Notes: generated by a model not told the origin, from the letters alone. A stretch of 64,000 nucleotides of DNA from an uncultured Verrucomicrobiota bacterium (GCA_937873455.1 CALMYG010000177.1:60118-124117); one strand, 5' to 3'. Positions 22,661 to 61,416 are shown, numbered from the stretch's first letter. Translations and numbers: made by a program.

Positions 22661-23839
22661 ATGAAAGTCGTCTTGATTGTTTTGGACTCCGTCGGCATCG
22701 GCCATGCGCCGGATGCCTCCGCATACGGCGACGAAGGCGCCGCCACCCTCCCTCATATCGGCGAAGCGGTCGGCGGTCTTGTCCTTCCGACCCTTCAAGC
22801 CCTTGGCCTGGGCAACATTCCCGCCCTGATCCCGGGATCTCCGGCCATACCCGGCATCGCCCCACATCGCCAACCACTCGCCCATTACGGGGTGATGATC
22901 GAAAAGTCCCAGGGCAAGGACACGGTCACCGGCCACTGGGAAATCGTGGGGCTGGAACTGATTCCCGGCTTTCACCTGTTTCCGCCGGGACCACCCTCGT
23001 TTCCTGATGAATTGGTCCGGCAGTTCGAAGAACGCACCGGGCGGGGCATTCTCGGAAACAAAGCGGCCAGCGGCACCGGGATCATCGATGCGTGCGGCGC
23101 GCAACACATGCAAGAGAAGAAATGGATCGTCTATACCAGCGCCGACAGCGTATTCCAGATCGCCGCGCACGAGGAAGTCATCCCGCTGCCCGAATTGTAC
23201 CGGGCCTGCGAAATCGCCCGGGAGCTTTGTGATGCCTACCGGGTCGGGCGGGTCATCGCACGCCCCTTCATCGGACAGCCGGGCGCATTTCAACGCACGG
23301 AAAACCGGCGCGATTACGCGTTTAAACCATCTGAACCAACCGTACTGGAAAAATTGACCGCCGCCGGTCATGCCGTGTACGCCGTCGGGAAAATCGAAGA
23401 CATTGTCGCCCACCGGGGCATCACCGAATCCAACCACACCGGCAACAACCGCGACTCGCAAAAAGCGGTCGAAGCGTTCATGAAGAAGCCGGGCGACGGC
23501 CTGATCTTCGCCAACTTCATCGATTTCGACATGATCTATGGCCACCGCCGCGACCCGCAAGGGTACGCCGACAGCTTAAAACAAACCGACGATTGGCTCG
23601 CCGGGTTTATTCCCACCTTGGCTCAAGACGACGTCCTGATCCTGACCGCTGATCACGGCAACGACCCGACCTGGAAAGGTACCGATCATACCCGGGAGAC
23701 CGTTCCCCTGCTGCTGTACCGCCCCGGACAGACCGGAATATCCCTCGGGGTTCGCAACGGTTATTACGATGTCGCCCAGTCCATCGCCACGCTTTTTGGA
23801 ATTGATCCCATGACGCGGGGCGTGTCATTTATTTCATAA
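22661..23839 (+). CDS. deoB: Phosphopentomutase
   Basis: MKVVLIVLDSVGIGHAPDA...GDEG at the N-terminus and a C-terminal ...ILTADHGNDPT... match the metalloenzyme-superfamily DeoB. The start was assigned to the ATG at 22661 with an upstream GGGGA. Confidence 0.9.
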   Translation: MKVVLIVLDSVGIGHAPDASAYGDEGAATLPHIGEAVGGLVLPTLQALGLGNIPALIPGSPAIPGIAPHRQPLAHYGVMIEKSQGKDTVTGHWEIVGLELIPGFHLFPPGPPSFPDELVRQFEERTGRGILGNKAASGTGIIDACGAQHMQEKKWIVYTSADSVFQIAAHEEVIPLPELYRACEIARELCDAYRVGRVIARPFIGQPGAFQRTENRRDYAFKPSEPTVLEKLTAAGHAVYAVGKIEDIVAHRGITESNHTGNNRDSQKAVEAFMKKPGDGLIFANFIDFDMIYGHRRDPQGYADSLKQTDDWLAGFIPTLAQDDVLILTADHGNDPTWKGTDHTRETVPLLLYRPGQTGISLGVRNGYYDVAQSIATLFGIDPMTRGVSFIS

Positions 23840-23853
23840 CGAAGGAGTCCCCT

Positions 23854-25158
23854 ATGTTGCCGCAATGGATCATCGAAAAGAAACGCGACGGGAAAGCCCT
23901 GAGCGAAGAAGAAATCCGTTTTTTTATCCGGGGTTACACCGATGGAACCCTTCCCGATTATCAAATGTCCGCCCTGGCCATGGCGATTTACTTTCAGGGC
24001 ATGACCCCGGAAGAGGTTTCCGTGCTGGTCGATGCGATGATGCGCTCCGGCGATCTCGTCGACACCTCCTCCATTCCGCTGCCCAAGGCGGACAAACATT
24101 CGACCGGCGGCATCGGCGACAAGGTCTCCCTGGTGCTGGCCCCCCTGGTCGCTTGTTTTGATGTCGCCGTTCCCATGATTTCCGGGCGCGGCCTCGGCAT
24201 CACTGGCGGCACCCTGGACAAACTGGAATCCATACCCGGCTATCAAGCCAAGATCGCGGAATCCCACTTTATTGATGTCATCAAGCAATGCGGTTGCTCC
24301 ATCATCGGCCAAACCGACCGCCTCGCCCCCGCGGACAAAAAGTTGTACGCGTTGCGGGATGTCACCGCGACGGTGCCCTCCATCCCCCTCATCACCGCCA
24401 GCATCATGTGCAAAAAAATGGCCGAAGGCATCGACGCCCTCGTTCTGGATGTCAAATGCGGCTCCGGCGCCTTTATGAAAACCCGCGATGATGCGCGCGC
24501 GCTCGCTCAAAGCATGATCAACGTCGGCAAGGCGATGAACAAAAAAGTCTCGGCGATCGTGACCGACATGAACCAACCGCTCGGCAAAACCGCCGGCAAT
24601 GCGCTTGAGGTGATCGAGTCGGTCGAAACCTTGCGCGGAGAAGGACCAGCGGATTTAGTCGATCTTACCGTCGTGTTCGCGGCGGAAATGATCGGCCTGG
24701 TCCACCCCGTGTCCGATCCGGCGGCGCTCGACCGGCAACTGCGTGAAAAGCTGGTAAACGGCGAGGCGCTCGCCCGCTTTCGCGAGATGGTACGCCTGCA
24801 ACACGGCGATGTCGGAGCCATCGACGATCTTTCCCGGCTGCCCAAAGCCCGGATTGTCCGCCCCTTCCCCGCGCCGCGCGGCGGTTTCGTGTCCAAAGTT
24901 CACGCCGAAACCATCGGCCGCGCGTGCATCGTGCTCGGTGCGGGACGTAAAAAGACCGAAGATCCGGTCGATTTCGCGGTCGGGGTATCCCACCTGGTCA
25001 AGATCGGCGACCGCATCGAAGCCGGCGCGCCGCTGCTGATGATTCACGCCAACGACGAAGCCAAGCTGAATGAGGCGGAACGTATGCTGGCCGAAGCTTT
25101 TAACATATCGGATGCGCCGGTTCCCCCGTCACCCGCCGTATTGGAGCGACTGGCGTAG
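23854..25158 (+). CDS. deoA: Thymidine/pyrimidine-nucleoside phosphorylase
   Basis: Family motifs include ...KKRDGKALSEEEI..., ...DKHSTGGIGDKVSL... and SGRGLGITGGTLDKLESIPG. It is ~434 aa. Confidence 0.9.
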   Translation: MLPQWIIEKKRDGKALSEEEIRFFIRGYTDGTLPDYQMSALAMAIYFQGMTPEEVSVLVDAMMRSGDLVDTSSIPLPKADKHSTGGIGDKVSLVLAPLVACFDVAVPMISGRGLGITGGTLDKLESIPGYQAKIAESHFIDVIKQCGCSIIGQTDRLAPADKKLYALRDVTATVPSIPLITASIMCKKMAEGIDALVLDVKCGSGAFMKTRDDARALAQSMINVGKAMNKKVSAIVTDMNQPLGKTAGNALEVIESVETLRGEGPADLVDLTVVFAAEMIGLVHPVSDPAALDRQLREKLVNGEALARFREMVRLQHGDVGAIDDLSRLPKARIVRPFPAPRGGFVSKVHAETIGRACIVLGAGRKKTEDPVDFAVGVSHLVKIGDRIEAGAPLLMIHANDEAKLNEAERMLAEAFNISDAPVPPSPAVLERLA

Positions 25159-25214
25159 TACAACCCGAAGGACCGCACGAGACGTGATGCGTTCCCGTAA
25201 CCAAGGAAACAACA

Positions 25215-26042
25215 ATGAACATGGAAATTCTGGATAAAGCCCTTGCCGTGGTGCGCGAGCGGCTCGGCAACCCGCAACCTACGGCCGGCTTGATCCTCGG
25301 CTCCGGATGGGGCGATGTACTGGAATCGTTTGAGATCGAGAAGACCCTGCCGTATGAGGAAATTCCCGGACTGGGCAAGACCGGCGTGGTCGGCCATTCC
25401 GGCCGGCTGATCCTCGCCCGGGGCGCGGGTATTTCCACCCTGATCTTCCAGGGTCGGCGTCATTATTACGAGGGCGAAGGCTGGACCCCGGTGGCGCTTC
25501 CGGTCTACGTCCTCAAACAACTGGGCGTATCCTGGGTGCTGCTCACCAACGCGGCCGGCGGCGTGCGCGCCGACCTGACCCCGGGAAGCCTGATGGTGCT
25601 GTCTGATCACGTCAACAACATGGGAACCAATCCCCTGATCGGCCCGCACCACCCGGCCTGGGGGCCGCGCTTCCCCGACCTGTCCCACGCCTACGACGCT
25701 CCCATGCGGTCCGCGCTCGCGCGGGCCGGCGCCGCCGCCGGGCTCAACGTCTCCGAAGGCGTCTACCTCGCCTCCACCGGACCCTTTTACGAAACGCCCG
25801 CGGAAATTCGCGCATACCGCACCCTCGGCGCGGACGCGGTCGGCATGTCCACCGTGCCGGAAACGTTGCTGGCCAACGCGGCCGGGTTGCGGGTCGCCGG
25901 TCTTTCCTGCATCACCAACAGCGCGGCGGGCATCAGCGCCCACCCGCTCAGCCACGAAGAAGTCACGGAAACCTCCCGGCAAACCATGCCCAAGATGAAG
26001 GCCATGATCGCCGGCTTCTGGAAGGAAATGGCCCATGCATGA
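25215..26042 (+). CDS. punA: Purine nucleoside phosphorylase (PNP/MTAP family)
   Basis: It is ~275 aa with LILGSGWG, ...HSGRLILARG... and ...GMSTVPE... motifs. Its end overlaps cdd by 8 nt. Confidence 0.85.
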   Translation: MNMEILDKALAVVRERLGNPQPTAGLILGSGWGDVLESFEIEKTLPYEEIPGLGKTGVVGHSGRLILARGAGISTLIFQGRRHYYEGEGWTPVALPVYVLKQLGVSWVLLTNAAGGVRADLTPGSLMVLSDHVNNMGTNPLIGPHHPAWGPRFPDLSHAYDAPMRSALARAGAAAGLNVSEGVYLASTGPFYETPAEIRAYRTLGADAVGMSTVPETLLANAAGLRVAGLSCITNSAAGISAHPLSHEEVTETSRQTMPKMKAMIAGFWKEMAHA

Positions 26043-26439
26043 GATGGCGGAAAAAATGATCGAAGCGGCAATTGAAGTCGCCGCCCGCGCCTACGCCCCC
26101 TACTCCAAGTTTCATGTCGGCGCAGCCTTGTTGACCCATGACGGCGAAATCATCGTCGGCTGCAATGTGGAAAACGCCTCCTACGGGCTCACCATTTGCG
26201 CTGAGCGCAATGCCATCTTCGCCGCGGTGGCCCGGAACATCCGGACCTTCCGCGCAGTGGCCATTGTCGCCGATGGCGAGGTCATGCCGTTTCCCTGCGG
26301 CGCCTGCCGCCAGGTCTTGAGCGAATTTTGCGGGCCGGCCACCCCGGTTTATGTCGCATCGATCAGCAAGCCTGGCGAAATCAAGGCGCTGACCATGGGC
26401 GAGCTGCTCCCGCATGCCTTCGCCTTCGGGGATGAGTGA
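26035..26439 (+). CDS. cdd: Cytidine deaminase
   Basis: The zinc-binding motifs CAERNA and PCGACRQ are present. It is ~134 aa, matching the homotetrameric type. Confidence 0.85.
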   Translation: MHEMAEKMIEAAIEVAARAYAPYSKFHVGAALLTHDGEIIVGCNVENASYGLTICAERNAIFAAVARNIRTFRAVAIVADGEVMPFPCGACRQVLSEFCGPATPVYVASISKPGEIKALTMGELLPHAFAFGDE

Positions 26440-53697: not shown

Positions 53698-54462
53698 ATG
53701 ACCTTTGAATCCGTTTGGATACCCTCCCGCGTTCCCGGCATTCCGGGCCGCCACATCCGGGTTTTCCTGCCCCCCGGATACGATCCTCATTCCACACCTG
53801 GTTATCCGACGCTCTACCTTCACGACGGCCAGAATGTCTTTGCGCCCGGAGGACCATTTGGTTGCTGGCGGGCCGAACAGGTCGCCGGTGAACTCATCGG
53901 GTCCGGTCGCACCCCGCCCTTTATCATCATCGCCATCGACAACGATGGCATCAACCGCCGCCACGAATACGTTCCGCCCGGCGATGCCTACGCCGGCGCG
54001 GAACCCGGACGAGCCGATGCTTATGCCCGTTTTGTGCTTGAGGACATCATGCCGCTGGTGAATGCGCGCTGGCGAACCCGTCCGGAACCGGAAGCTACCA
54101 CGGTGGGCGGTTCATCACTGGGCGGAGTCGTCAGCCTGTACCTCGCGCTGGAAACCGATCGATTCGGCGGGGCTGCCTCCCTGTCCACCGCCATCTGCTG
54201 GGCGCCGAATTACCTGACCGGCTTGGCTGGGCGATCCGGCGTTGCGCTTCGGCTCTACCACGACATTGGCACCGCCGAATACACCAGCATGGCCCCGGCC
54301 GATTACGAACACGCGCCCCGCCTGCTCCATGACCGGCTCACCGCGCTGCTCGTGAACCCCGAACCAAACCTGCGCTTTGTCGTCGCGGAAGCCGCCGACC
54401 ACAACGAGGCCGCATGGCATCAGCGGCTGCCCGACATCCTGACCTGGTTGATGAAACCATGA
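53698..54462 (+). CDS. Esterase-family alpha/beta hydrolase (putative esterase / enterochelin-esterase-like)
   Basis: The family N-terminus is ...RVFLPPGYDPHSTPGYPTLYLHDGQN.... The nucleophile elbow is GGSSLGG. Confidence 0.65.
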   Translation: MTFESVWIPSRVPGIPGRHIRVFLPPGYDPHSTPGYPTLYLHDGQNVFAPGGPFGCWRAEQVAGELIGSGRTPPFIIIAIDNDGINRRHEYVPPGDAYAGAEPGRADAYARFVLEDIMPLVNARWRTRPEPEATTVGGSSLGGVVSLYLALETDRFGGAASLSTAICWAPNYLTGLAGRSGVALRLYHDIGTAEYTSMAPADYEHAPRLLHDRLTALLVNPEPNLRFVVAEAADHNEAAWHQRLPDILTWLMKP

Positions 54463-55301
54463 AACGCAGATGGTTCAACACGGTCCTGACCGCCGCCCTA
54501 CTCCATACCGGCTGCGCGACCGTCCCCTACCGCCCCGGCGTAACGTACATCGATCCGCGCCTGCCTGCCGAACCGCTGGGCGAGGAACAAATCGTCCGGG
54601 GCAAACCTCACCGATGGCTCGACAAGTCTGACTGGATCTGGCCGGGCAGTTGGCTGGGCAAGCTCATCCTGTGGGATCGGCGCGTGGACAATCATACCAT
54701 TGGGGAGGAGACCGAGGCGATCATGCTCCGATATCTGGAAATCAACGACCTGCAACACGTAAAAGTTCGGCTGAATGCCTATCATGTACGCGATGAGTGG
54801 CGCCGATTGGTGGCCAACAAGTCCGTCGGCGCGGGATGGCGGTACACGATAGGCGTTTTAACCTGGCTTCACTATACGATATTGCCCGGCCGCTTTTTCG
54901 GAGGCGATCATTACAACCCATGGTCCAACACCATCCACTTATACTCCGATATTCCAGCCATTGCCCTACACGAGGGCGGACACGCCAAGGATTTCGCCAA
55001 CCGGAAATGGAAAGGCGCCTACGGCTTCGTCTACATTATCCCCCTGGTGGCGTTGTACCATGAAGCCATCGCCACCAGCGATGCCCTCGGGTACTTGCTG
55101 GCCGAGGAAAATGTGGATCTGCAGCGCGAGGGGTATCAAATCATGTATCCCGCCTACGGCACCTACCTCGGCGGCGGCTTCGAGCAGGTGGTTCCCATTT
55201 GGAATCCCGTCATGTTTATTGCCGGGGTGATCGGAGGCCATATCGTCGGACGCGCCGAAGCACGGCGACTGCCCGCGGAATCGCCCGTGGAGCCGGATTA
55301 A
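54459..55301 (+). CDS. Lipoprotein with an HExxH motif, a putative zinc-dependent hydrolase
   Basis: The signal plus lipobox is MKRRWFNTVLTAALLHTGC. HEGGHAKD is an HExxH motif. Its start overlaps the esterase stop by 4 nt. Confidence 0.45.
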   Translation: MKRRWFNTVLTAALLHTGCATVPYRPGVTYIDPRLPAEPLGEEQIVRGKPHRWLDKSDWIWPGSWLGKLILWDRRVDNHTIGEETEAIMLRYLEINDLQHVKVRLNAYHVRDEWRRLVANKSVGAGWRYTIGVLTWLHYTILPGRFFGGDHYNPWSNTIHLYSDIPAIALHEGGHAKDFANRKWKGAYGFVYIIPLVALYHEAIATSDALGYLLAEENVDLQREGYQIMYPAYGTYLGGGFEQVVPIWNPVMFIAGVIGGHIVGRAEARRLPAESPVEPD

Positions 55302-55651
55302 CTGCCCCGATACGTCGAATATCCGTAGGGGCTCAACAGTAGCGGAATGTGGTAATGCGCCGAGGTATCGCGAATCTCAAATACGATATCCGCATAGGGA
55401 TAAAACCCAGCGATCTTGACGGCGGAGAAGTAAGCTTCGGTGTTGAAATGCATCCGGTAGCGTCCCGGCTGAAGATCATGATCCGACGGCAACAAGTCGG
55501 CCACGCGACCATCCGCGTTGGTTGTGCCGGCGGACAGTTGCGTCCACTCCCCGGATGAAGCCTCGACAAACAACCGCACCGGAACACCCGCGGCGGGCTG
55601 CCCCAGCGCGGTATCGAGTACGTGCGTGGTGATCGGCGAACGTTTTGTCAT
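55298..55651 (-). CDS. hiuH: 5-hydroxyisourate hydrolase (transthyretin-like)
   Basis: It is 117 aa with HVLDTALGQPAAG at the N-terminus and the diagnostic C-terminal YRGS. Confidence 0.85.
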   Translation of the reverse strand: MTKRSPITTHVLDTALGQPAAGVPVRLFVEASSGEWTQLSAGTTNADGRVADLLPSDHDLQPGRYRMHFNTEAYFSAVKIAGFYPYADIVFEIRDTSAHYHIPLLLSPYGYSTYRGS

Positions 55652-55655
55652 GGCA

Positions 55656-57101
55656 TTACCTCATACAACGGGCTTCCAGAATTTTTACAAACGAACGGGC
55701 GTGTAACTCGTCCAGGGTCAACCCGGTCATGCGGGCCTCATCCTCGGTAATCGCTCCGCAATTGATGCCCCGTAGAAAATAATTCAACAAACCCTGACCG
55801 GTCGCCGCATCATCGAAGGTGTCGCCGATCAACGTCGCCTGGGCGGCTTTTTCAATAAAGGTTTTAAGTCGGAGCGACGCCGCATCCAGCCCCTTCAGGA
55901 AGAAATAATACACGGCGGCATACCGAATCGGAAATTGGGCGGGGTGAAGATCCCAGCCTTGGTAATAGGCCTGCTCCAGCGAGTGATTTACGTGCTCCAG
56001 CATCAACCGCCATGACCGGTGAACCACGTCGCGGTTTTCCCGGCGTTGCGTTGCCGTCAATGCCTTGCCCGGGGCGGCCCGGTGCGGTCCCACCGGCATG
56101 ATATTCGTGGCCCCGTCGGAAATCCAGATTCCGGTCCCCGCCAGAGAGACCTTCATCATGTGACGGGCGAAATCGCAGGCCAGGTGATTCATGCGCTGAT
56201 ACGCGGCGGTAATGCTGCAGGAAGCGGTGTAATCATACACGCCAAAATGAGCCCCGACGCAGCGCCCCTTCGCCGCCTTCACCAGTTGTGAGACATTGCA
56301 CGCGCCCTCGTGGTTGATGATGGATTGCGGGGTTTCAATCATCAGCTCGCACTTTAGCGAACCTTTGGGCAATTTCAGCCGTGCCTCCAAGGCCTCCAGC
56401 AGGCGCACGCCGGCGGCGACGTGCTCCGGCAACATGACCTTGGGAAAGGTGACCACAAAATTTTCGGGCAACGCGCCCCCGGTCTGTCGCACCAATTCGG
56501 TAATGAAAATATCGAGGGTGGCGACGGCACGTTTTTTGAGCTCCTGGGAAAACGGCTTGATGCGAATACCGATAAACGGGGGAAGCGTGCCGTTTTTCAT
56601 GCCGCGGGCGACTTCCTGTGCGGCAATCACCGCCTGGCGGTCTTCCTCCGCATCCGGGCGGTTGCCATAGCCATCCTCAAAATCGATTCGGAAGTCTTCA
56701 ACCGGTTCGCGCTTCAACTTTTCCACCACCCGCTCATAGACGGTATGAAGCAATCCGATATCCGGATGCGAGCGCTTAACACGATCAGGCCTGGTTTTGA
56801 GCGTACGCATCAAGGCGGCCAAGCCGGCCCGCGACTTGGGCAATTGCTCGTAACCGGGCAACTGAAGAGCGAGGGCGAAGGAAGCGAAATCCGGCGCGTA
56901 TTCCTCAAGACTGCGCAAGGCCACCTCACCCAGCTTGCGGGCGCCATCGGCTTTGAACAAGTGCGCACCGCCATACACCGTCTGAATCGGCTGGCGCGCC
57001 GGCGACTCGCCGGGATACCAAACCGCAAAGCGATCGTTCGCCTTCTTCAAATCGGACAACACCTTGGTGACAACGGATGCGGATAACGACGAACTCATCA
57101 T
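55656..57101 (-). CDS. Divergent malate-synthase-like TIM-barrel protein embedded in the purine-catabolism operon
   Basis: IDFEDGYG resembles the malate synthase DFEDS catalytic block. AHFGVYDYTAS resembles the malate synthase GxWDY signature. At 482 aa it is shorter than canonical AceB/GlcB. Its ATGATGA start overlaps the uraD stop, and GGAGGA lies upstream. Confidence 0.45.
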   Translation of the reverse strand: MMSSSLSASVVTKVLSDLKKANDRFAVWYPGESPARQPIQTVYGGAHLFKADGARKLGEVALRSLEEYAPDFASFALALQLPGYEQLPKSRAGLAALMRTLKTRPDRVKRSHPDIGLLHTVYERVVEKLKREPVEDFRIDFEDGYGNRPDAEEDRQAVIAAQEVARGMKNGTLPPFIGIRIKPFSQELKKRAVATLDIFITELVRQTGGALPENFVVTFPKVMLPEHVAAGVRLLEALEARLKLPKGSLKCELMIETPQSIINHEGACNVSQLVKAAKGRCVGAHFGVYDYTASCSITAAYQRMNHLACDFARHMMKVSLAGTGIWISDGATNIMPVGPHRAAPGKALTATQRRENRDVVHRSWRLMLEHVNHSLEQAYYQGWDLHPAQFPIRYAAVYYFFLKGLDAASLRLKTFIEKAAQATLIGDTFDDAATGQGLLNYFLRGINCGAITEDEARMTGLTLDELHARSFVKILEARCMR

Positions 57102-57649
57102 GATTCCTCCAGCCATTTTAGAATACGCAGATCGGTTATTTTTTGCTGCTCGGCGGCCGCGTTCTCCATCTCGCGGTCGCGTGGATTCGGCAACCGAGCC
57201 TCCAGCAAGCCCAACATTTCCGCCGCGCTTTTTCCGGTTGCGCAGACAATGAAAATAAATCCGAATTTTTCCTCGTAGGCCCGGTTGCCTTCTGCCAGTC
57301 CGCGTAACACCGCGTCATCGGCTGCGGCCACTCCGGATTGCTCACCGGAGGCCCAGCCTTTGGTGTTGGCGTATTTTTCGCGAAGGCTGTTGATATCACC
57401 GATACGCGGATGGGCGGCAAAGGCCTCCAACCAGTCTGCCTGGCTCAAACCACGCCAGACCGCCACCGCCGCGGCTTGAACCTCCGCGCGGGATTGGTAC
57501 GGTCGCCGCTCCGCCATCGCGGCGGCCCAGGCGCGGCAACCGCAACAACGATAAAAAGCCGCTTCCGCCTCCTCGGTGCTGCAACAATTTAATTCGGATA
57601 CCTTCATGATGTTATCGTGTAAGGGCTGAGGGGTTGAGGCCGCGAGCAC
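57098..57649 (-). CDS. uraD: OHCU (2-oxo-4-hydroxy-4-carboxy-5-ureidoimidazoline) decarboxylase
   Basis: It is ~183 aa with AHPRIG and ...FIFIVCA... blocks typical of the OHCU decarboxylase family. Confidence 0.75.
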   Translation of the reverse strand: MLAASTPQPLHDNIMKVSELNCCSTEEAEAAFYRCCGCRAWAAAMAERRPYQSRAEVQAAAVAVWRGLSQADWLEAFAAHPRIGDINSLREKYANTKGWASGEQSGVAAADDAVLRGLAEGNRAYEEKFGFIFIVCATGKSAAEMLGLLEARLPNPRDREMENAAAEQQKITDLRILKWLEES

Positions 57650-57655
57650 TTCGGC

Positions 57656-58648
57656 TCATGCGCCGGCCAGCACCTTGCCCAAAACCCGCAACCGGCTGAC
57701 CCCGCCGTCCGGGAAAATGTTTAGTTTTAAATGGGAAAACGGTCCGGTGTTTTTAATATCCCGGTCAAAGAAATGTTGGTGGTGCGCCTGCAGCTTTGTC
57801 CGCGGAAGCACTTGATTCCATTCGACTTCATTCCACGTCAGGATATCGATGTTTTCATCGGGGGCGAGACAGCCGTCCACCGAGCATTCATCGGGAAAAT
57901 TGCCCTTGAAATGATTGGTATCAACTTCAAGCTGGCTGATGATCCCCGGACGGCCCAGCTTGACGATCACCCAGTCGTAGCCCATCCCGCGGCGGCGCTT
58001 GGTCTCCCATCCATCCCCCATGTTGGCCGAACGACCGGGCATCAGGAGGTTGTGCATGGAGCTGAAAAACATATCGCTGCAGGCCACCGCGCGCCCGCCA
58101 TTCGCGAGGGCGGCGAGATCAATGGTTTCATCCGGATCGCTCGCGGTCCAATCCTTGTACACGTCGCCGTACACCCGGAAACGCGCGACGCCGCCATCGG
58201 GATAAATGTTTAACCGCACATGGGTCCAGGGTTGCCGGCTGCTGATGGCAAACAGATTTTGGGCCCCCGGATTCAACGGCGAGCGCGGGAGAATTTCCGT
58301 CCATTCGCCCTGCGCGCTCATTGCGGCATCGATGGAGGCAAACGCGGGGTTGTTGCCGAGAAAGTGGTTGGTGTCGATGTCCACCCCGTGTATCACACCG
58401 GGAAGGCCGAGTTCGATTACGCACCAATCATGGCCGGGCGTGCGTTTTCGGCGGGTCTCCCAACCGTCCATCCACTTGCCGCGATCCGTATACTTGTCAT
58501 CGATGAAGATGCCCCGCCCCGCCTTGAGCAGGTTTTCCTTTTCGGCAAAAAATTCATCGCTGGCGGAAAGGGTTTTTCCGCCGATTTTTTCCGCGGCGAG
58601 GTCAATAAACCCCGCAAACGACGCAGCTCCGGATGGGGCATGGCTCAT
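57656..58648 (-). CDS. alc: Allantoicase
   Basis: It carries the two tandem allantoicase repeats, each with DGWETRR/DGWETKRRR and VDTNHF(L/K)GN motifs. Confidence 0.85.
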   Translation of the reverse strand: MSHAPSGAASFAGFIDLAAEKIGGKTLSASDEFFAEKENLLKAGRGIFIDDKYTDRGKWMDGWETRRKRTPGHDWCVIELGLPGVIHGVDIDTNHFLGNNPAFASIDAAMSAQGEWTEILPRSPLNPGAQNLFAISSRQPWTHVRLNIYPDGGVARFRVYGDVYKDWTASDPDETIDLAALANGGRAVACSDMFFSSMHNLLMPGRSANMGDGWETKRRRGMGYDWVIVKLGRPGIISQLEVDTNHFKGNFPDECSVDGCLAPDENIDILTWNEVEWNQVLPRTKLQAHHQHFFDRDIKNTGPFSHLKLNIFPDGGVSRLRVLGKVLAGA

Positions 58649-58669
58649 GAACGACTCCTTGAATAGGGA

Positions 58670-60037
58670 TTATGCCAATGATGGGGAACGCAACAGGACG
58701 CGACCCGGCAGAAGATTTTCCATGTGATGAGTGTCATACACAACACGCCCCCGAAGATAGGTGGTTTCCACGACGCCGACAAGCGTTTCGTGATCGTACG
58801 GGGTGACTTTATGGCGGTGGCGCAGTTCGCGCCCCTTGACGGTAAATGAGCGTCCGGGATCCACGACGACCAAATCGGCATCCGCACCCGGGGCGATTGC
58901 CCCTTTGCGCGGGAAAAGTCCTACCAGCCGGGCCGGCCCCTCACACATCCAGCGGGCAATGTGCTCGAGTGAAATGCCCCGATTACGGCATTCGGTTATC
59001 ATGACCGACAAACCCAACTGGAGCGAGCAGATCCCGCCCCAGGCCCGGATCAAGTCCCCCTCCGCCAGGTATTTCATTTCCGGCGGGCATGGCGAATGAT
59101 CGGATACCACCAGATCGAGAGCGCCCTCCTGTAGGGCTTTCCACAAGGCCTCCCGGTGGCATGCTTCCCGTATCGGTGGCGCACATTTGAACCGGGTGTC
59201 GGCATCGGGAATCGACTCGGCTTGAAAATGGAGGTAATGCGGACACGTCTCCACCGTGATCGGCAAACCCTCCGCGCGCGCGGTTGCCAGCATGGGCAGC
59301 GCATCCGCCGTGGCCAGGTGAACGACATGAACATGACAACCGGTCTGTCGACAAAGTTCAATCAGCTGCCCAATAGCATCCGTTTCCCACCATGACGGAC
59401 GGGAGGCCACATAGCGTTGATACGACTGATGTTTTCCCGGCGGCAAATCGACCGGCCCATCCGATTCAGCATGAGCCAGCAAGGGGATACCAAGACGGTT
59501 CAGGATGGGCATGGCTTCGGCCAACTCATTCTTCGTCACATTCAAAAACTCCGGGATGCCGGAATACACCATAAATGCCTTCACCCCGAATACCCCCATG
59601 CGAACAAGTTCCTCCACATGGTGCGCATTTCCCGGAACCAGGCCCGCATAAAAGCCCACATCCACGGAAAGCTTTCCTTCGGCGGCCGCCAATTTCTGGC
59701 GGAAGGCATCCGGGGTGGTCGTGACCGGATTGCTGTTCAGCGGCATTTCGATGAGCGTCGTCACGCCGCCGGCCGCGGCCGCTGAGGTGGCGGTCAGAAA
59801 ACCCTCCCACTCCGTGCGCCCCGGCTCATTGATATGCACATGGCTATCGACCAACCCCGGGAAAACCCATGCATCGCCCACATCACGCACCGGCATGGCG
59901 GAGTTAGGGGGATCGCCCGGCTGCACGGCCATAATCTTCTCGCCCTCCACCAGAACCACCCCGTCCACGACCCCATGCGGGCTCACAATATGCCGGCTAC
60001 GTAAATAAAATGTTTGATCCATGACGCACGTTATCAA
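58670..60037 (-). CDS. allB: Allantoinase (cyclic amidohydrolase superfamily)
   Basis: GLVDSHVHINEPGRTEWEGF is the metal-binding HxH. ...VKAFM.... a later H and ...DHSP... further down also match. It is ~455 aa. Confidence 0.85.
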   Translation of the reverse strand: MITCVMDQTFYLRSRHIVSPHGVVDGVVLVEGEKIMAVQPGDPPNSAMPVRDVGDAWVFPGLVDSHVHINEPGRTEWEGFLTATSAAAAGGVTTLIEMPLNSNPVTTTPDAFRQKLAAAEGKLSVDVGFYAGLVPGNAHHVEELVRMGVFGVKAFMVYSGIPEFLNVTKNELAEAMPILNRLGIPLLAHAESDGPVDLPPGKHQSYQRYVASRPSWWETDAIGQLIELCRQTGCHVHVVHLATADALPMLATARAEGLPITVETCPHYLHFQAESIPDADTRFKCAPPIREACHREALWKALQEGALDLVVSDHSPCPPEMKYLAEGDLIRAWGGICSLQLGLSVMITECRNRGISLEHIARWMCEGPARLVGLFPRKGAIAPGADADLVVVDPGRSFTVKGRELRHRHKVTPYDHETLVGVVETTYLRGRVVYDTHHMENLLPGRVLLRSPSLA

Positions 60038-60772: not shown

Positions 60773-61021
60773 ATGGTCACTGCAACAATGACAAGTAAGG
60801 GTCAGCTCACGATTCCGAAGGCCGTGCGGGATTCGCTTCATCTTCACGCGGGCGATCGCGTCGCATTCGTTATTCGCAACAATGCAGAGGCCGTGCTGAA
60901 GCCGGTGACGAAGTCGGTGGACGATGTATTTGGGCGGCTTCACAACCCCAGGCAACCGCGAAAGAGTGTAGAAGAGATGAACGCTGCCGTGACGAAACGA
61001 ATGCAGGAGCGAAAGGGATGA
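60773..61021 (+). CDS. vapB: AbrB/MazE/SpoVT-type antitoxin (VapB-like)
   Basis: SKGQLTIPKAVRDSLHLHAGDRVAF is a swapped-hairpin beta-barrel motif. It is 82 aa and overlaps the PIN gene by 4 nt. The surrounding region has lower GC. Confidence 0.7.
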   Translation: MVTATMTSKGQLTIPKAVRDSLHLHAGDRVAFVIRNNAEAVLKPVTKSVDDVFGRLHNPRQPRKSVEEMNAAVTKRMQERKG

Positions 61022-61416
61022 TCGCCGTTGATACGAACGTCATTGTACGATTTCTTGTTCGGGACGATGAAAGACAGGCGGAAGCCGTCCGCAAGCGTCT
61101 CAAACAGGCGGAAGAACGGCGTGAACGCTTGAAAATTCCGCTGCTTGTCGTTCTGGAAACTATTTGGGTTCTGGAAAGTGCGTATGAAAAGACACGATCC
61201 GAAATTCTGGGATCGATTGAGGACATGCGACAGATGCCCGTATTTGAGTTCGAGGCCGATCGCGTTATCGAGGGCCTCCTGAATGACGGACCGAAATACA
61301 ATACTGACCTTGCAGATATCCTCATTGGCCACGCGGCCGAGACCTCTGGATGCGACGCAGTCATCACGTTCGACAAGGGGGCAGCCAAGCTTCCCTTCTT
61401 CAGCATCTTGAAATGA
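61018..61416 (+). CDS. vapC: PIN-domain ribonuclease toxin (VapC)
   Basis: MIAVDTNVIVR supplies the first acidic residue. ...LETIWVLE... and the C-terminal ...FDKG... match the PIN fold. It is 132 aa. Confidence 0.8.
   Translation: MIAVDTNVIVRFLVRDDERQAEAVRKRLKQAEERRERLKIPLLVVLETIWVLESAYEKTRSEILGSIEDMRQMPVFEFEADRVIEGLLNDGPKYNTDLADILIGHAAETSGCDAVITFDKGAAKLPFFSILK

Follow-up and report, generated by a model that had tools for sequence, protein, structure and literature searches.

The window analysed here, a 64-kb stretch (64,000 nucleotides) of DNA from an uncultured Verrucomicrobiota bacterium (GCA_937873455.1 CALMYG010000177.1:60118-124117), carries at positions 55298-60037 five tightly packed minus-strand open reading frames (ORFs) in the order allB-alc-uraD-X-hiuH, and it is the fourth of these, here called X, that concerns us. 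The first gene, allB (58670..60037, minus strand), encodes allantoinase, which converts (S)-allantoin to allantoate; it scores 546.8 bits against TIGR03178 (cut-off 357.85) and matches Amidohydro_1 and ALN_composite in Pfam. Its start is ambiguous, either TTG at 60037 or ATG at 60022; the TIGR03178 match starts at residue 11 of the 455-aa ORF, and the gene callers chose a shorter, 432-aa form. It is followed by alc (57656..58648, minus strand) for allantoicase, which splits allantoate into (S)-ureidoglycolate and urea (TIGR02961, 444.1 bits against a cut-off of 277.9; Pfam Allantoicase repeat, E = 3e-105), and by uraD (57098..57649, minus strand, GTG start) for the OHCU decarboxylase (OHCU stands for 2-oxo-4-hydroxy-4-carboxy-5-ureidoimidazoline; TIGR03180, 173.4 bits against 139.4; Pfam OHCU_decarbox, E = 1.4e-43). 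The last gene, hiuH (55298..55651, minus strand), encodes 5-hydroxyisourate (HIU) hydrolase with a C-terminal YRGS (TIGR02962, 146.2 bits against 87.45; Pfam Transthyretin, E = 6.8e-41). With these four enzymes of oxidative uricolysis and ureide breakdown co-oriented and all above the curated NCBIfam equivalog cut-offs, the operon is an ordinary uricolytic one, which leads from 5-hydroxyisourate by way of OHCU, (S)-allantoin and allantoate to (S)-ureidoglycolate.

From allB to hiuH, the genes are separated by 21 nt, 6 nt, a 4-nt overlap and 4 nt. The overlap joins uraD and X: at this translational-coupling junction (57098..57110, minus strand), read directly as GGAGGAATCATGATGA, the ATG start of X (57101-57099) overlaps the TGA stop of uraD (57100-57098), and a GGAGGA Shine-Dalgarno sequence for X is found at 57110-57105. 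X itself occupies 55656..57101 on the minus strand. The original prediction, made from the sequence alone, had assigned the operon as we do and had also placed X, its DFEDG and GVYDY blocks and its coupling to uraD correctly, erring only in the length of the protein, which is 481 and not 482 aa. The same operon is present on two independent assemblies, the remainder of the window matching contig DAOLCH010000006.1 of the metagenome-assembled genome (MAG) GCA_035324135.1. Upstream of the operon, we found no Rfam riboswitch match and no minus-strand sigma-70-like promoter. The lack of a urate oxidase and of a ureidoglycolate lyase, pointed out earlier for the operon, extends to the full 64 kb, in which we found no urate oxidase (UOX, PuuD or FAD monooxygenase), xanthine dehydrogenase (XDH), AllA or canonical malate synthase A; the Pfam-annotated genes of the window include no malate synthase of any type. 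The organism is probably a member of Kiritimatiellia, and its urate oxidase must be encoded outside the 64 kb.

X is a member of DUF6986 (PF22484), which it matches at 604.4 bits (604 when rounded; E = 1.2e-181, model positions 1-408) where the gathering threshold is 27 bits. The family is uncharacterised, and the earlier suggestion that the gene could be something new in the pathway is supported. X matches no NCBIfam family at E <= 0.01 and has no sequence relative in the PDB; its closest named homologues, at 81% identity, come from Kiritimatiellia. DUF6986 has more than 8000 matches with 60-85% identity across phyla, forms 646 clusters at 50% identity (E <= 1e-30) and is found in at least 587 matching stretches of species-representative genomes. 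The source annotations of its proteins vary among 'phosphoenolpyruvate kinase', 'citrate lyase beta subunit', 'aldolase' and 'DUF6986 family protein'. In the literature, we found nothing on DUF6986, on 'phosphoenolpyruvate kinase' in connection with allantoin genes or on MSMEG_5726, a mycobacterial gene considered below.

In the AlphaFold2 model of X (pLDDT 84.8, pTM 0.84), helices precede a TIM barrel at the N-terminus and a helical domain or lid follows it at the C-terminus, and a Foldseek search of the PDB with this model returned the CitE-like protein 3qqw, malate synthase A (MSA; 3cv2/3cuz), malate synthase G (MSG), CLYBL and HpcH, all of them distant (E = 3e-5 to 1e-3). The best match in a PDB profile search with the X family was the malyl-CoA lyase (MCL) 5ugr, at E = 9e-4. 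Against the Pfam MS_TIM-barrel, X scores 20.6 bits, under the gathering score of 26.4, and a similarly weak match is found in 71 of 76 homologues; HpcH_HpaI (PF03328, cut-off 25 bits) is not matched by X at E <= 0.01 and is matched weakly by 68 of the 76, the homologues scoring 14-25.2 bits. With hhalign, a profile of the 76 sequences was related to MSA at 66% probability and a profile of 125 diverse representatives to the E. coli and B. anthracis MSA at 90% (E = 1.5e-6, residues 216-414 of X); the E. coli AceB sequence used was checked and is 100% identical to 3cuz_A. The malate-synthase-like TIM-barrel fold proposed earlier is thus upheld by model, structure search and profile alignment alike, as a distant resemblance.

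In the profile alignment, K221, E256 and D290 of X fall on the LPK motif, E250 and D278 of MSA; E256 and D290 also align with the ET...FGxxDY motif of malyl-CoA lyase, and each is 98% conserved among the 125 representatives. An extended alignment, of low confidence in that part, pairs IDFEDG with ADFEDS, GIRIK with CRVRG and WDLHP with WIAHP (X and MSA, respectively). An Asp-x-Glu-Asp motif, an Arg, and a Glu and an Asp on Mg are conserved across CitE-like enzymes and malate synthases, the MCL equivalents of the motif and the Arg being Asp42/Glu44/Asp45 and Arg76 (PMC3832036). X carries D140-F-E-D-G144 and G287-V-Y-D-Y291; among the 125 representatives, D140/E142/D143 are conserved at 100%/98%/97% and R180 at 99%, and the residues invariant across the family are D140, E142, D143, R180, K221, E256, R280, D290, D329, D384, R393, R411 and D430. 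X is a deep branch of the CitE-like/malate-synthase TIM-barrel superfamily, outside its known families, and to judge from these residues, it retains the superfamily's Mg/2-oxoacid site (DxED, R180, E256 and D290).

Compared with malate synthases A and G (AceB, GlcB; PF01274), X has in common the barrel, the N-terminal helical part and the C-terminal helical lid as well as the DFED motif, the catalytic Arg after the next strand, the Lys of LPK, the Glu and Asp ligands of Mg and the W..HP strand; their glyoxylate-Mg chemistry would be shared as well. X differs in other respects: identity is about 14%, X has a 90-residue helical insertion after strand 1 and the additional invariants R280, D329, D384, R393 and R411, and it resides in purine clusters and not beside isocitrate lyase. 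The PROSITE-type malate synthase signature, which we take to be [KR]-[DENQ]-H-x2-G-L-N-x-G-x-W-D-Y-[LIVM]-F, is not matched by X, whose residues 278-293 read KGRCVGAHFGVYDYTA; only the G..DY core is common (RCVGAHFGVYDYTA against DHxxGLNxGxWDY[LIVM]F). In the lid, the motif 430-DDAAT of X resembles 446-EDAAT of MSA, D430 and D431 being 96% and 91% conserved. When the catalytic Asp of the lid (MSA D447, MSG D631, MCL D299) was compared, hhalign aligned DDAATGQG of X with CDGERTEEG of MSA and landed E453/E455, conserved at 29%/61%, on the catalytic position. The best structural matches of X are the CitE-like enzymes (malyl-CoA lyase, CLYBL, citrate lyase beta and the haloarchaeal malate synthase; PMC3832036), namely 3qqw, with a TM score of 0.64 on the target, and CLYBL (5vxc/5vxo); these have the same Asp-x-Glu-Asp, Arg, Glu and Asp set, and X is about 130-180 residues longer.

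Some other features of the protein are of less consequence. Residues ~84-113 (window ~56763-56852) form a variable helical insertion after barrel strand 1 that is absent in 450-aa Kiritimatiellae variants and in the 405-430-aa actinobacterial forms. A possible Cys2His2 metal site (C281-x3-H285 ... H306-x2-C309) was dropped, C281 being 55% and C309 64% conserved family-wide, and sub-threshold Pfam matches to Adenylsucc_synt in 15 of 76 members (best 3e-5) were judged spurious; in the homologues P0077 and P0098 they cover residues 234-301, where the Mg-site strands and the malate-synthase/HpcH matches also lie. Domain fusions gave no Rosetta-stone evidence: P0137 and P0222 contain X only, and P0211 has a sub-threshold 32-residue transthyretin fragment that is probably an ORF-calling artefact.

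The genomic company of X was studied in about 170 related loci from many phyla in all, sampled through X apart from a small plasmid control sampled by alc. The genome set consisted of 80 loci from species-representative genomes and six looked up by protein, that is, 86 with the window's own excluded, and spans Acidobacteriota, Bacteroidota, Ignavibacteria/Chlorobi, Melainabacteria, Myxococcota, Gemmatimonadales, Planctomycetia, Dormiibacterota and others; neighbours were clustered without prior bias, and the clusters were named by Pfam and then scored with hidden Markov models (HMMs). Within 10 kb of X, uraD and hiuH are found in 60 of the 86 loci, allB in 48, alc in 47, xanthine dehydrogenase in 26 and the pair of allantoate amidohydrolase (AAH; M20) and ureidoglycine aminohydrolase (UGlyAH; cupin) in 3, any purine gene at all being present in 68. 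PuuD is found in 31 of the loci and UOX in 13, and the two together in none. The linkage of X to purine genes is far above chance, and X is a fixed member of urate and allantoin clusters: DUF6986 occurs in the pathway clusters of at least eight named lineages, and X is the sole recurrent extra gene to emerge from the neighbour clustering. The Kiritimatiellia relatives have the order allB-alc-uraD-X-hiuH and no oxidase within 10 kb, but oxidase-free arrangements like that of the window are a minority, making up 9 of the 28 full-flank loci with uraD or hiuH. One Kiritimatiellae lineage (loci L086, 8609-12295, and L087) has kept uraD-X-hiuH together with a low-complexity 184-aa ORF; relative to locus L089, it has recently lost allB-alc, with small ORFs, some of them Imm27-like, in their place.

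Neighbours of other kinds were seen as well. At 14 loci of Pyrinomonadaceae and Blastocatellia (L006, L010, L012, L014, L017-L020, L024-L026, L029, L030 and L059), the next gene after X, on its strand, encodes an M49-like (DPP III family) protein of 550-560 aa, often without purine genes nearby. Small neighbours with no Pfam match, the 184-aa Kiritimatiellae ORF and a 177-aa Pyrinomonadaceae ORF, are each lineage-specific and were set aside, as were two neighbour clusters without Pfam matches ('c6' and 'c10'), judged to be antisense-ORF artefacts in high-GC DNA because they overlap X or purine genes at several loci. A glyoxylate-shunt context for X was rejected too, no isocitrate lyase being found among 91 loci.

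Actinobacteria extend the picture. In plasmid records searched with tblastn, genuine family members, scoring 451-626 bits against DUF6986, were found in Streptomyces, Nocardia, Tsukamurella, Paenarthrobacter and Gordonia, and a putative further member was found in Nonomuraea as a partial match. Nocardia farcinica has the string uraD-hiuH-UOX-guaD-xdh-X-alc-puuE. In Tsukamurella, the order is xdh-guaD-X, with X overlapping by 4 nt a cupin annotated as 'bifunctional allantoicase/(S)-ureidoglycine aminohydrolase' and with a racemase, an NCS1 permease and allB close by; in Paenarthrobacter, X stands with a PuuE-like deacetylase and an NCS1 permease, a glycerate kinase near X on that plasmid having been dismissed as a partner as it is part of a tartrate cluster. 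A metagenome scan with an actinobacterial X alignment gave 80 further loci, whose neighbours include UOX (23), allB (25), alc (16), cupin (11), hiuH (14), uraD (13), XDH (12), racemase (6) and NCS1 (6) but AllA in none. At several loci, X sits in a module for allantoin only, with no uraD, hiuH or oxidase: L104 reads NCS1-racemase-allB-alc-X and L099 X-alc-puuE-racemase-NCS1, and L115 and L163 are of the same kind. Because X occurs in such modules, it should act after allantoin. In Mycobacterium marinum (L178), X-alc-puuE are joined by 4-nt overlaps, with a divergent permease, and mycobacterial X is translationally coupled to allantoicase. According to the supplement of PMC4617892, MSMEG_5726 of M. 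smegmatis, a 405-aa 'hypothetical protein' induced 2.03-fold under nitrogen limitation, lies directly upstream of 5727 allantoicase, 5728 PuuE-type deacetylase, 5729 racemase and 5730 permease, and MSMEG_5726-5731, including a GntR regulator, are all induced under that condition; by its synteny with M. marinum L178 and with L099, MSMEG_5726 is probably the DUF6986 orthologue. At five Streptomyces-like loci (L092, L111, L116, L153 and L168), X comes after etfB-etfA, for electron-transfer flavoprotein, and there are no purine genes nearby.

If (S)-ureidoglycolate is where the window's operon ends, the enzyme expected next is the lyase AllA, which releases urea and leaves glyoxylate. An AllA HMM, built from the E. 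coli (1xsq) and P. putida (2bdr) proteins with the E. coli sequence verified against 1xsq, found no match in X, in the window or in the 91 loci (1.45 Mb, --max, E <= 10), nor in the 80 metagenome loci, about 2 Mb of loci having been searched overall. The neighbour clustering likewise produced no other recurrent candidate for consuming ureidoglycolate (M20-type or dehydrogenase), although ureidoglycolate amidohydrolase (UAH) and AllD had no dedicated profile search. X accompanies each of the known routes to ureidoglycolate, whether by allantoicase, by the cupin allantoicase/UGlyAH or by AAH with UGlyAH. The plasmid control, with records sampled by alc (ten genera listed and four more unlisted), shows where AllA does occur: allA adjoins proteobacterial alc in P. 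aeruginosa (NZ_CP133752), Vibrio (NZ_CP045339), Acinetobacter (CP014652 and NZ_CP046899) and Phyllobacterium (NZ_CP104969). Among the matches listed, those to AllA are all proteobacterial, and those to X are non-proteobacterial; Nocardia, the sole member of Actinobacteria among the ten listed genera, has xdh-X-alc-puuE and no AllA within its 19-kb locus.

Urease provides a further connection to urea. It stands beside X without allantoicase in Gordonia-type loci (L095, L097 and L098; X-ureABCFGD): on Gordonia polyisoprenivorans p174 (L095, 8474-14826) and in the metagenome loci L097 and L098, a PaaI thioesterase overlapping X by 4 nt, X itself and ureABCFGD form one string, which also hints at the release of urea. 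As a recurrent neighbour of X, the thioesterase was discarded, being confined to the Gordonia lineage (3 loci). In a Blastocatellia MAG (L031, 3-6014), a ure operon is divergent from X and no other purine gene is near, and in a Niastella MAG (L054, 438-3245), urease lies upstream of UOX-allB-AAH-UGlyAH-uraD-hiuH-X; in this AAH/UGlyAH-type cluster, only a ureidoglycolate lyase could release urea.

Together, the comparative evidence suggests that the unassigned gene of the operon and the missing ureidoglycolate lyase are the same thing. X probably works at the two-carbon end of the pathway, on ureidoglycolate, on glyoxylate or on both. Besides OHCU, these alone among the intermediates carry an alpha-hydroxy or alpha-oxo acid group of the kind bound on Mg2+ by the superfamily. 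For the specific function, our preferred though tentative reading, to which we give a little less than an even chance, is that X stands in for AllA outside Proteobacteria as a Mg-dependent ureidoglycolate urea-lyase, its substrate, reaction and mechanism being what we infer from context and homology. X would bind (S)-ureidoglycolate on Mg2+ through the carboxylate and the alpha-hydroxyl; the hydroxyl proton would pass to a conserved acid, which could be D430 of the lid or D329/D384 of the barrel, and the alkoxide would collapse to glyoxylate with the departure of urea. Such chemistry would be a retro-addition, like malate synthase in reverse, with nitrogen instead of carbon in the leaving group.

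AllA (EC 4.3.2.3; PF04115; 1xsq, 2bdr) would then be the functional equivalent of X, in the same place of the operon: in four genera whose plasmid records have both genes, allA adjoins alc, as X does in Actinobacteria, and in Pseudomonas aeruginosa, the operon is hiuH-puuE-uraD-alc-allA. X would work like AllA without being a member of its family, AllA being a protein of about 160 aa from another Pfam family (PF04115) with no homology to X. Analogous enzymes are expected to exclude each other, and the exclusion between PuuD and UOX serves as an internal control for this; X shows such exclusion only towards AllA. PuuD itself is a precedent for the argument, as it was a domain of unknown function (DUF989/COG3748) placed at a missing step of uricolysis by context and mutual exclusion (Doniselli et al. 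2015, PMC4562309), in the manner of X and AllA here; PuuD has been validated genetically (PMC4562309), whereas the role of X is a proposal from gene context and sequence.

A number of observations weigh against the assignment of X as a urea-lyase. The comparison was one of gene neighbourhoods, and the lack of AllA could be no more than a sign that its family belongs to Proteobacteria and fungi. No purine gene is near X at eight of 37 full-flank loci or in the distant members L090 and L091, and such copies fit a general glyoxylate enzyme better; some modules have neither allB nor alc nearby, as in L079 (uraD-hiuH-X-PuuD) and L070 (uraD::hiuH fusion-X). To our knowledge, a C-N lyase would be unprecedented in the CitE-like/malate-synthase superfamily. 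Its characterised enzymes make or break C-C bonds or hydrolyse CoA thioesters (PMC3832036). The C-terminal lid of X and its DDAAT resemble the EDAAT of malate synthase, where the base for acetyl-CoA deprotonation lies, and the PaaI acyl-CoA thioesterase translationally coupled to X in the Gordonia lineage is the sole hint of CoA chemistry among the neighbours. Finally, we found no biochemical or genetic evidence on the X family in the literature.

The strongest alternative, which is the first of the two put forward at the outset, is that glyoxylate is condensed with acetyl-CoA inside the operon, X being a pathway-dedicated malate synthase (a fourth isoform) or a malyl-CoA lyase that makes malate or malyl-CoA. 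The homology behind this idea is real: it includes the weak MS_TIM-barrel and HpcH_HpaI matches (71 and 68 of the 76 members), the 90% alignment with MSA that pairs K221 with the LPK motif, E256 with E250 and D290 with D278, the Foldseek matches to MSA, MSG, CLYBL and CitE-like proteins, the MSA-like three-part build of N-terminal helices, barrel and C-terminal helical lid seen in the predicted model, and the conserved DxED, Arg, Glu and Asp with the lid acid D430/D431 (96%/91%) and the DDAAT motif. The thioesterase overlapping X in Gordonia-type loci and the stand-alone copies of X would suit it too, and the clusters have no other glyoxylate-consuming gene, with no isocitrate lyase and none recurrent, gcl, glxR and pucG having had no dedicated profiles. 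There is also a precedent in that the allantoin regulon of Streptomyces coelicolor has allB, alc and aceB1 and no AllA; aceB1 is a canonical malate synthase and X a separate family, though both are found in allantoin clusters without AllA.

However, a malate synthase would leave the conversion of ureidoglycolate to glyoxylate unencoded in all of the ~100 clusters with alc, a cupin-type enzyme or AAH, and it would not explain the pairs of X and urease without allantoicase. It would be redundant on Gordonia p174, which has a malate synthase G at a distance of 9 kb from X, and in mycobacteria as well, since these carry GlcB. By the Pfam, NCBIfam and PROSITE definitions, X does not qualify as a malate synthase; the position of the catalytic Asp is taken in the alignment by the poorly conserved E453/E455, and the X-specific invariants R280, D329, D384, R393 and R411 suggest another substrate. 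Malate synthesis within the operon is no longer the best explanation but a plausible one, with a chance well below even.

Two further explanations fare worse. X could be bifunctional and convert (S)-ureidoglycolate and acetyl-CoA to malate or malyl-CoA and urea, the urea being expelled at the Mg site and the bound glyoxylate never being set free. This would reconcile the gap in the pathway and the urease linkage with the retained lid and Arg and with the PaaI-X-urease string of Gordonia and, if true, would introduce C-N lyase chemistry to the CitE/malate-synthase superfamily for the first time, delivering purine carbon to the tricarboxylic acid (TCA) cycle without free glyoxylate and forming a new end of the ureide pathway in most non-proteobacterial bacteria. 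Such an enzyme is pure conjecture with no precedent, the urea would have to leave where the methyl of acetyl-CoA must enter, and the thioesterase linkage comes from the three loci of one lineage; we regard it as improbable. About equally doubtful is a role at the urate-to-allantoin stage, with X acting on HIU, OHCU or a side product or serving as an accessory or repair enzyme beside HiuH and UraD. These two are the most frequent and closest neighbours of X (60 of 86 loci), the start and stop of X and uraD overlap in the window, OHCU is an alpha-hydroxy acid too, and modules such as L079, L070 and the uraD-X-hiuH of L086/L087 do without allB and alc. The latter lineage has, on the other hand, lost allB-alc recently as judged against L089, no chemically sensible reaction is left at that stage, and the allantoin-only modules of Actinobacteria (L099, L104, L115, L163 and M. 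marinum) retain X.

The last idea, that X is a novel or unconventional urate oxidase replacing the one missing from the operon, would fit the lack of an oxidase within 64 kb here and within 10 kb in the Kiritimatiellia relatives, as well as the 12 species with Urah and Urad and no known oxidase of Doniselli et al. 2015 (PMC4562309), but it is highly improbable, and X was rejected as a third urate oxidase, because PuuD (31 loci) and UOX (13 loci) exclude each other and yet X accompanies both, ordinary oxidases adjoining X in 44 of the 86 genome loci and UOX in 23 of the 80 metagenome loci, and because X has no redox cofactor motif or oxidase homology, has no conserved Cys/His site and is present in allantoin-only modules.

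Elsewhere in the window, a plus-strand 295-aa ORF without a Pfam match (54414-55301) is convergent with hiuH, its 3' end overlapping the hiuH stop by 4 nt; as a conserved partner, it was rejected, being confined among all loci examined to this organism's own contigs. Upstream of the operon, beyond a Colicin_V-family gene, lies a MazE/PIN (VapBC-like) toxin-antitoxin pair (60773-61416, plus strand). A nucleoside-catabolism cluster at 22661-26439 (plus strand), identified by Pfam, consists of a phosphopentomutase-like gene (22661-23839), a pyrimidine-nucleoside phosphorylase (23854-25158), a PNP_UDP_1 phosphorylase (25215-26042) and a cytidine deaminase (26035-26439), all on the plus strand, and is followed by RimK/ATP-grasp, GCS2 and FGase genes. 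The cluster could be a source of bases for the purine pathway; no XDH or guanine deaminase is found within the 64 kb.

Overall, the operon itself is ordinary. What makes it of interest is X, whose widespread, conserved family occupies the single step of the ureide pathway left unassigned in most non-proteobacterial lineages. The pathway is regarded as complete, and yet its gene clusters stop at ureidoglycolate in Actinobacteria, Bacteroidota, Acidobacteriota, Kiritimatiellia (of the Planctomycetes-Verrucomicrobia-Chlamydiae [PVC] group), Ignavibacteria/Chlorobi, Melainabacteria, Myxococcota and Gemmatimonadales. The family has orthologues in tractable organisms, in Mycobacterium marinum and probably in M. 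smegmatis. Assigning X would either fill the last hole in the recovery of purine nitrogen for many bacteria of soil and water (among them mycobacteria, Nocardia and Rhodococcus) or define a fourth isoform of malate synthase, and either assignment would correct the annotations 'phosphoenolpyruvate kinase', 'citrate lyase beta subunit' and 'aldolase'. Should X prove to be the ureidoglycolate lyase, a C-N lyase reaction would be added to a well-studied enzyme superfamily.

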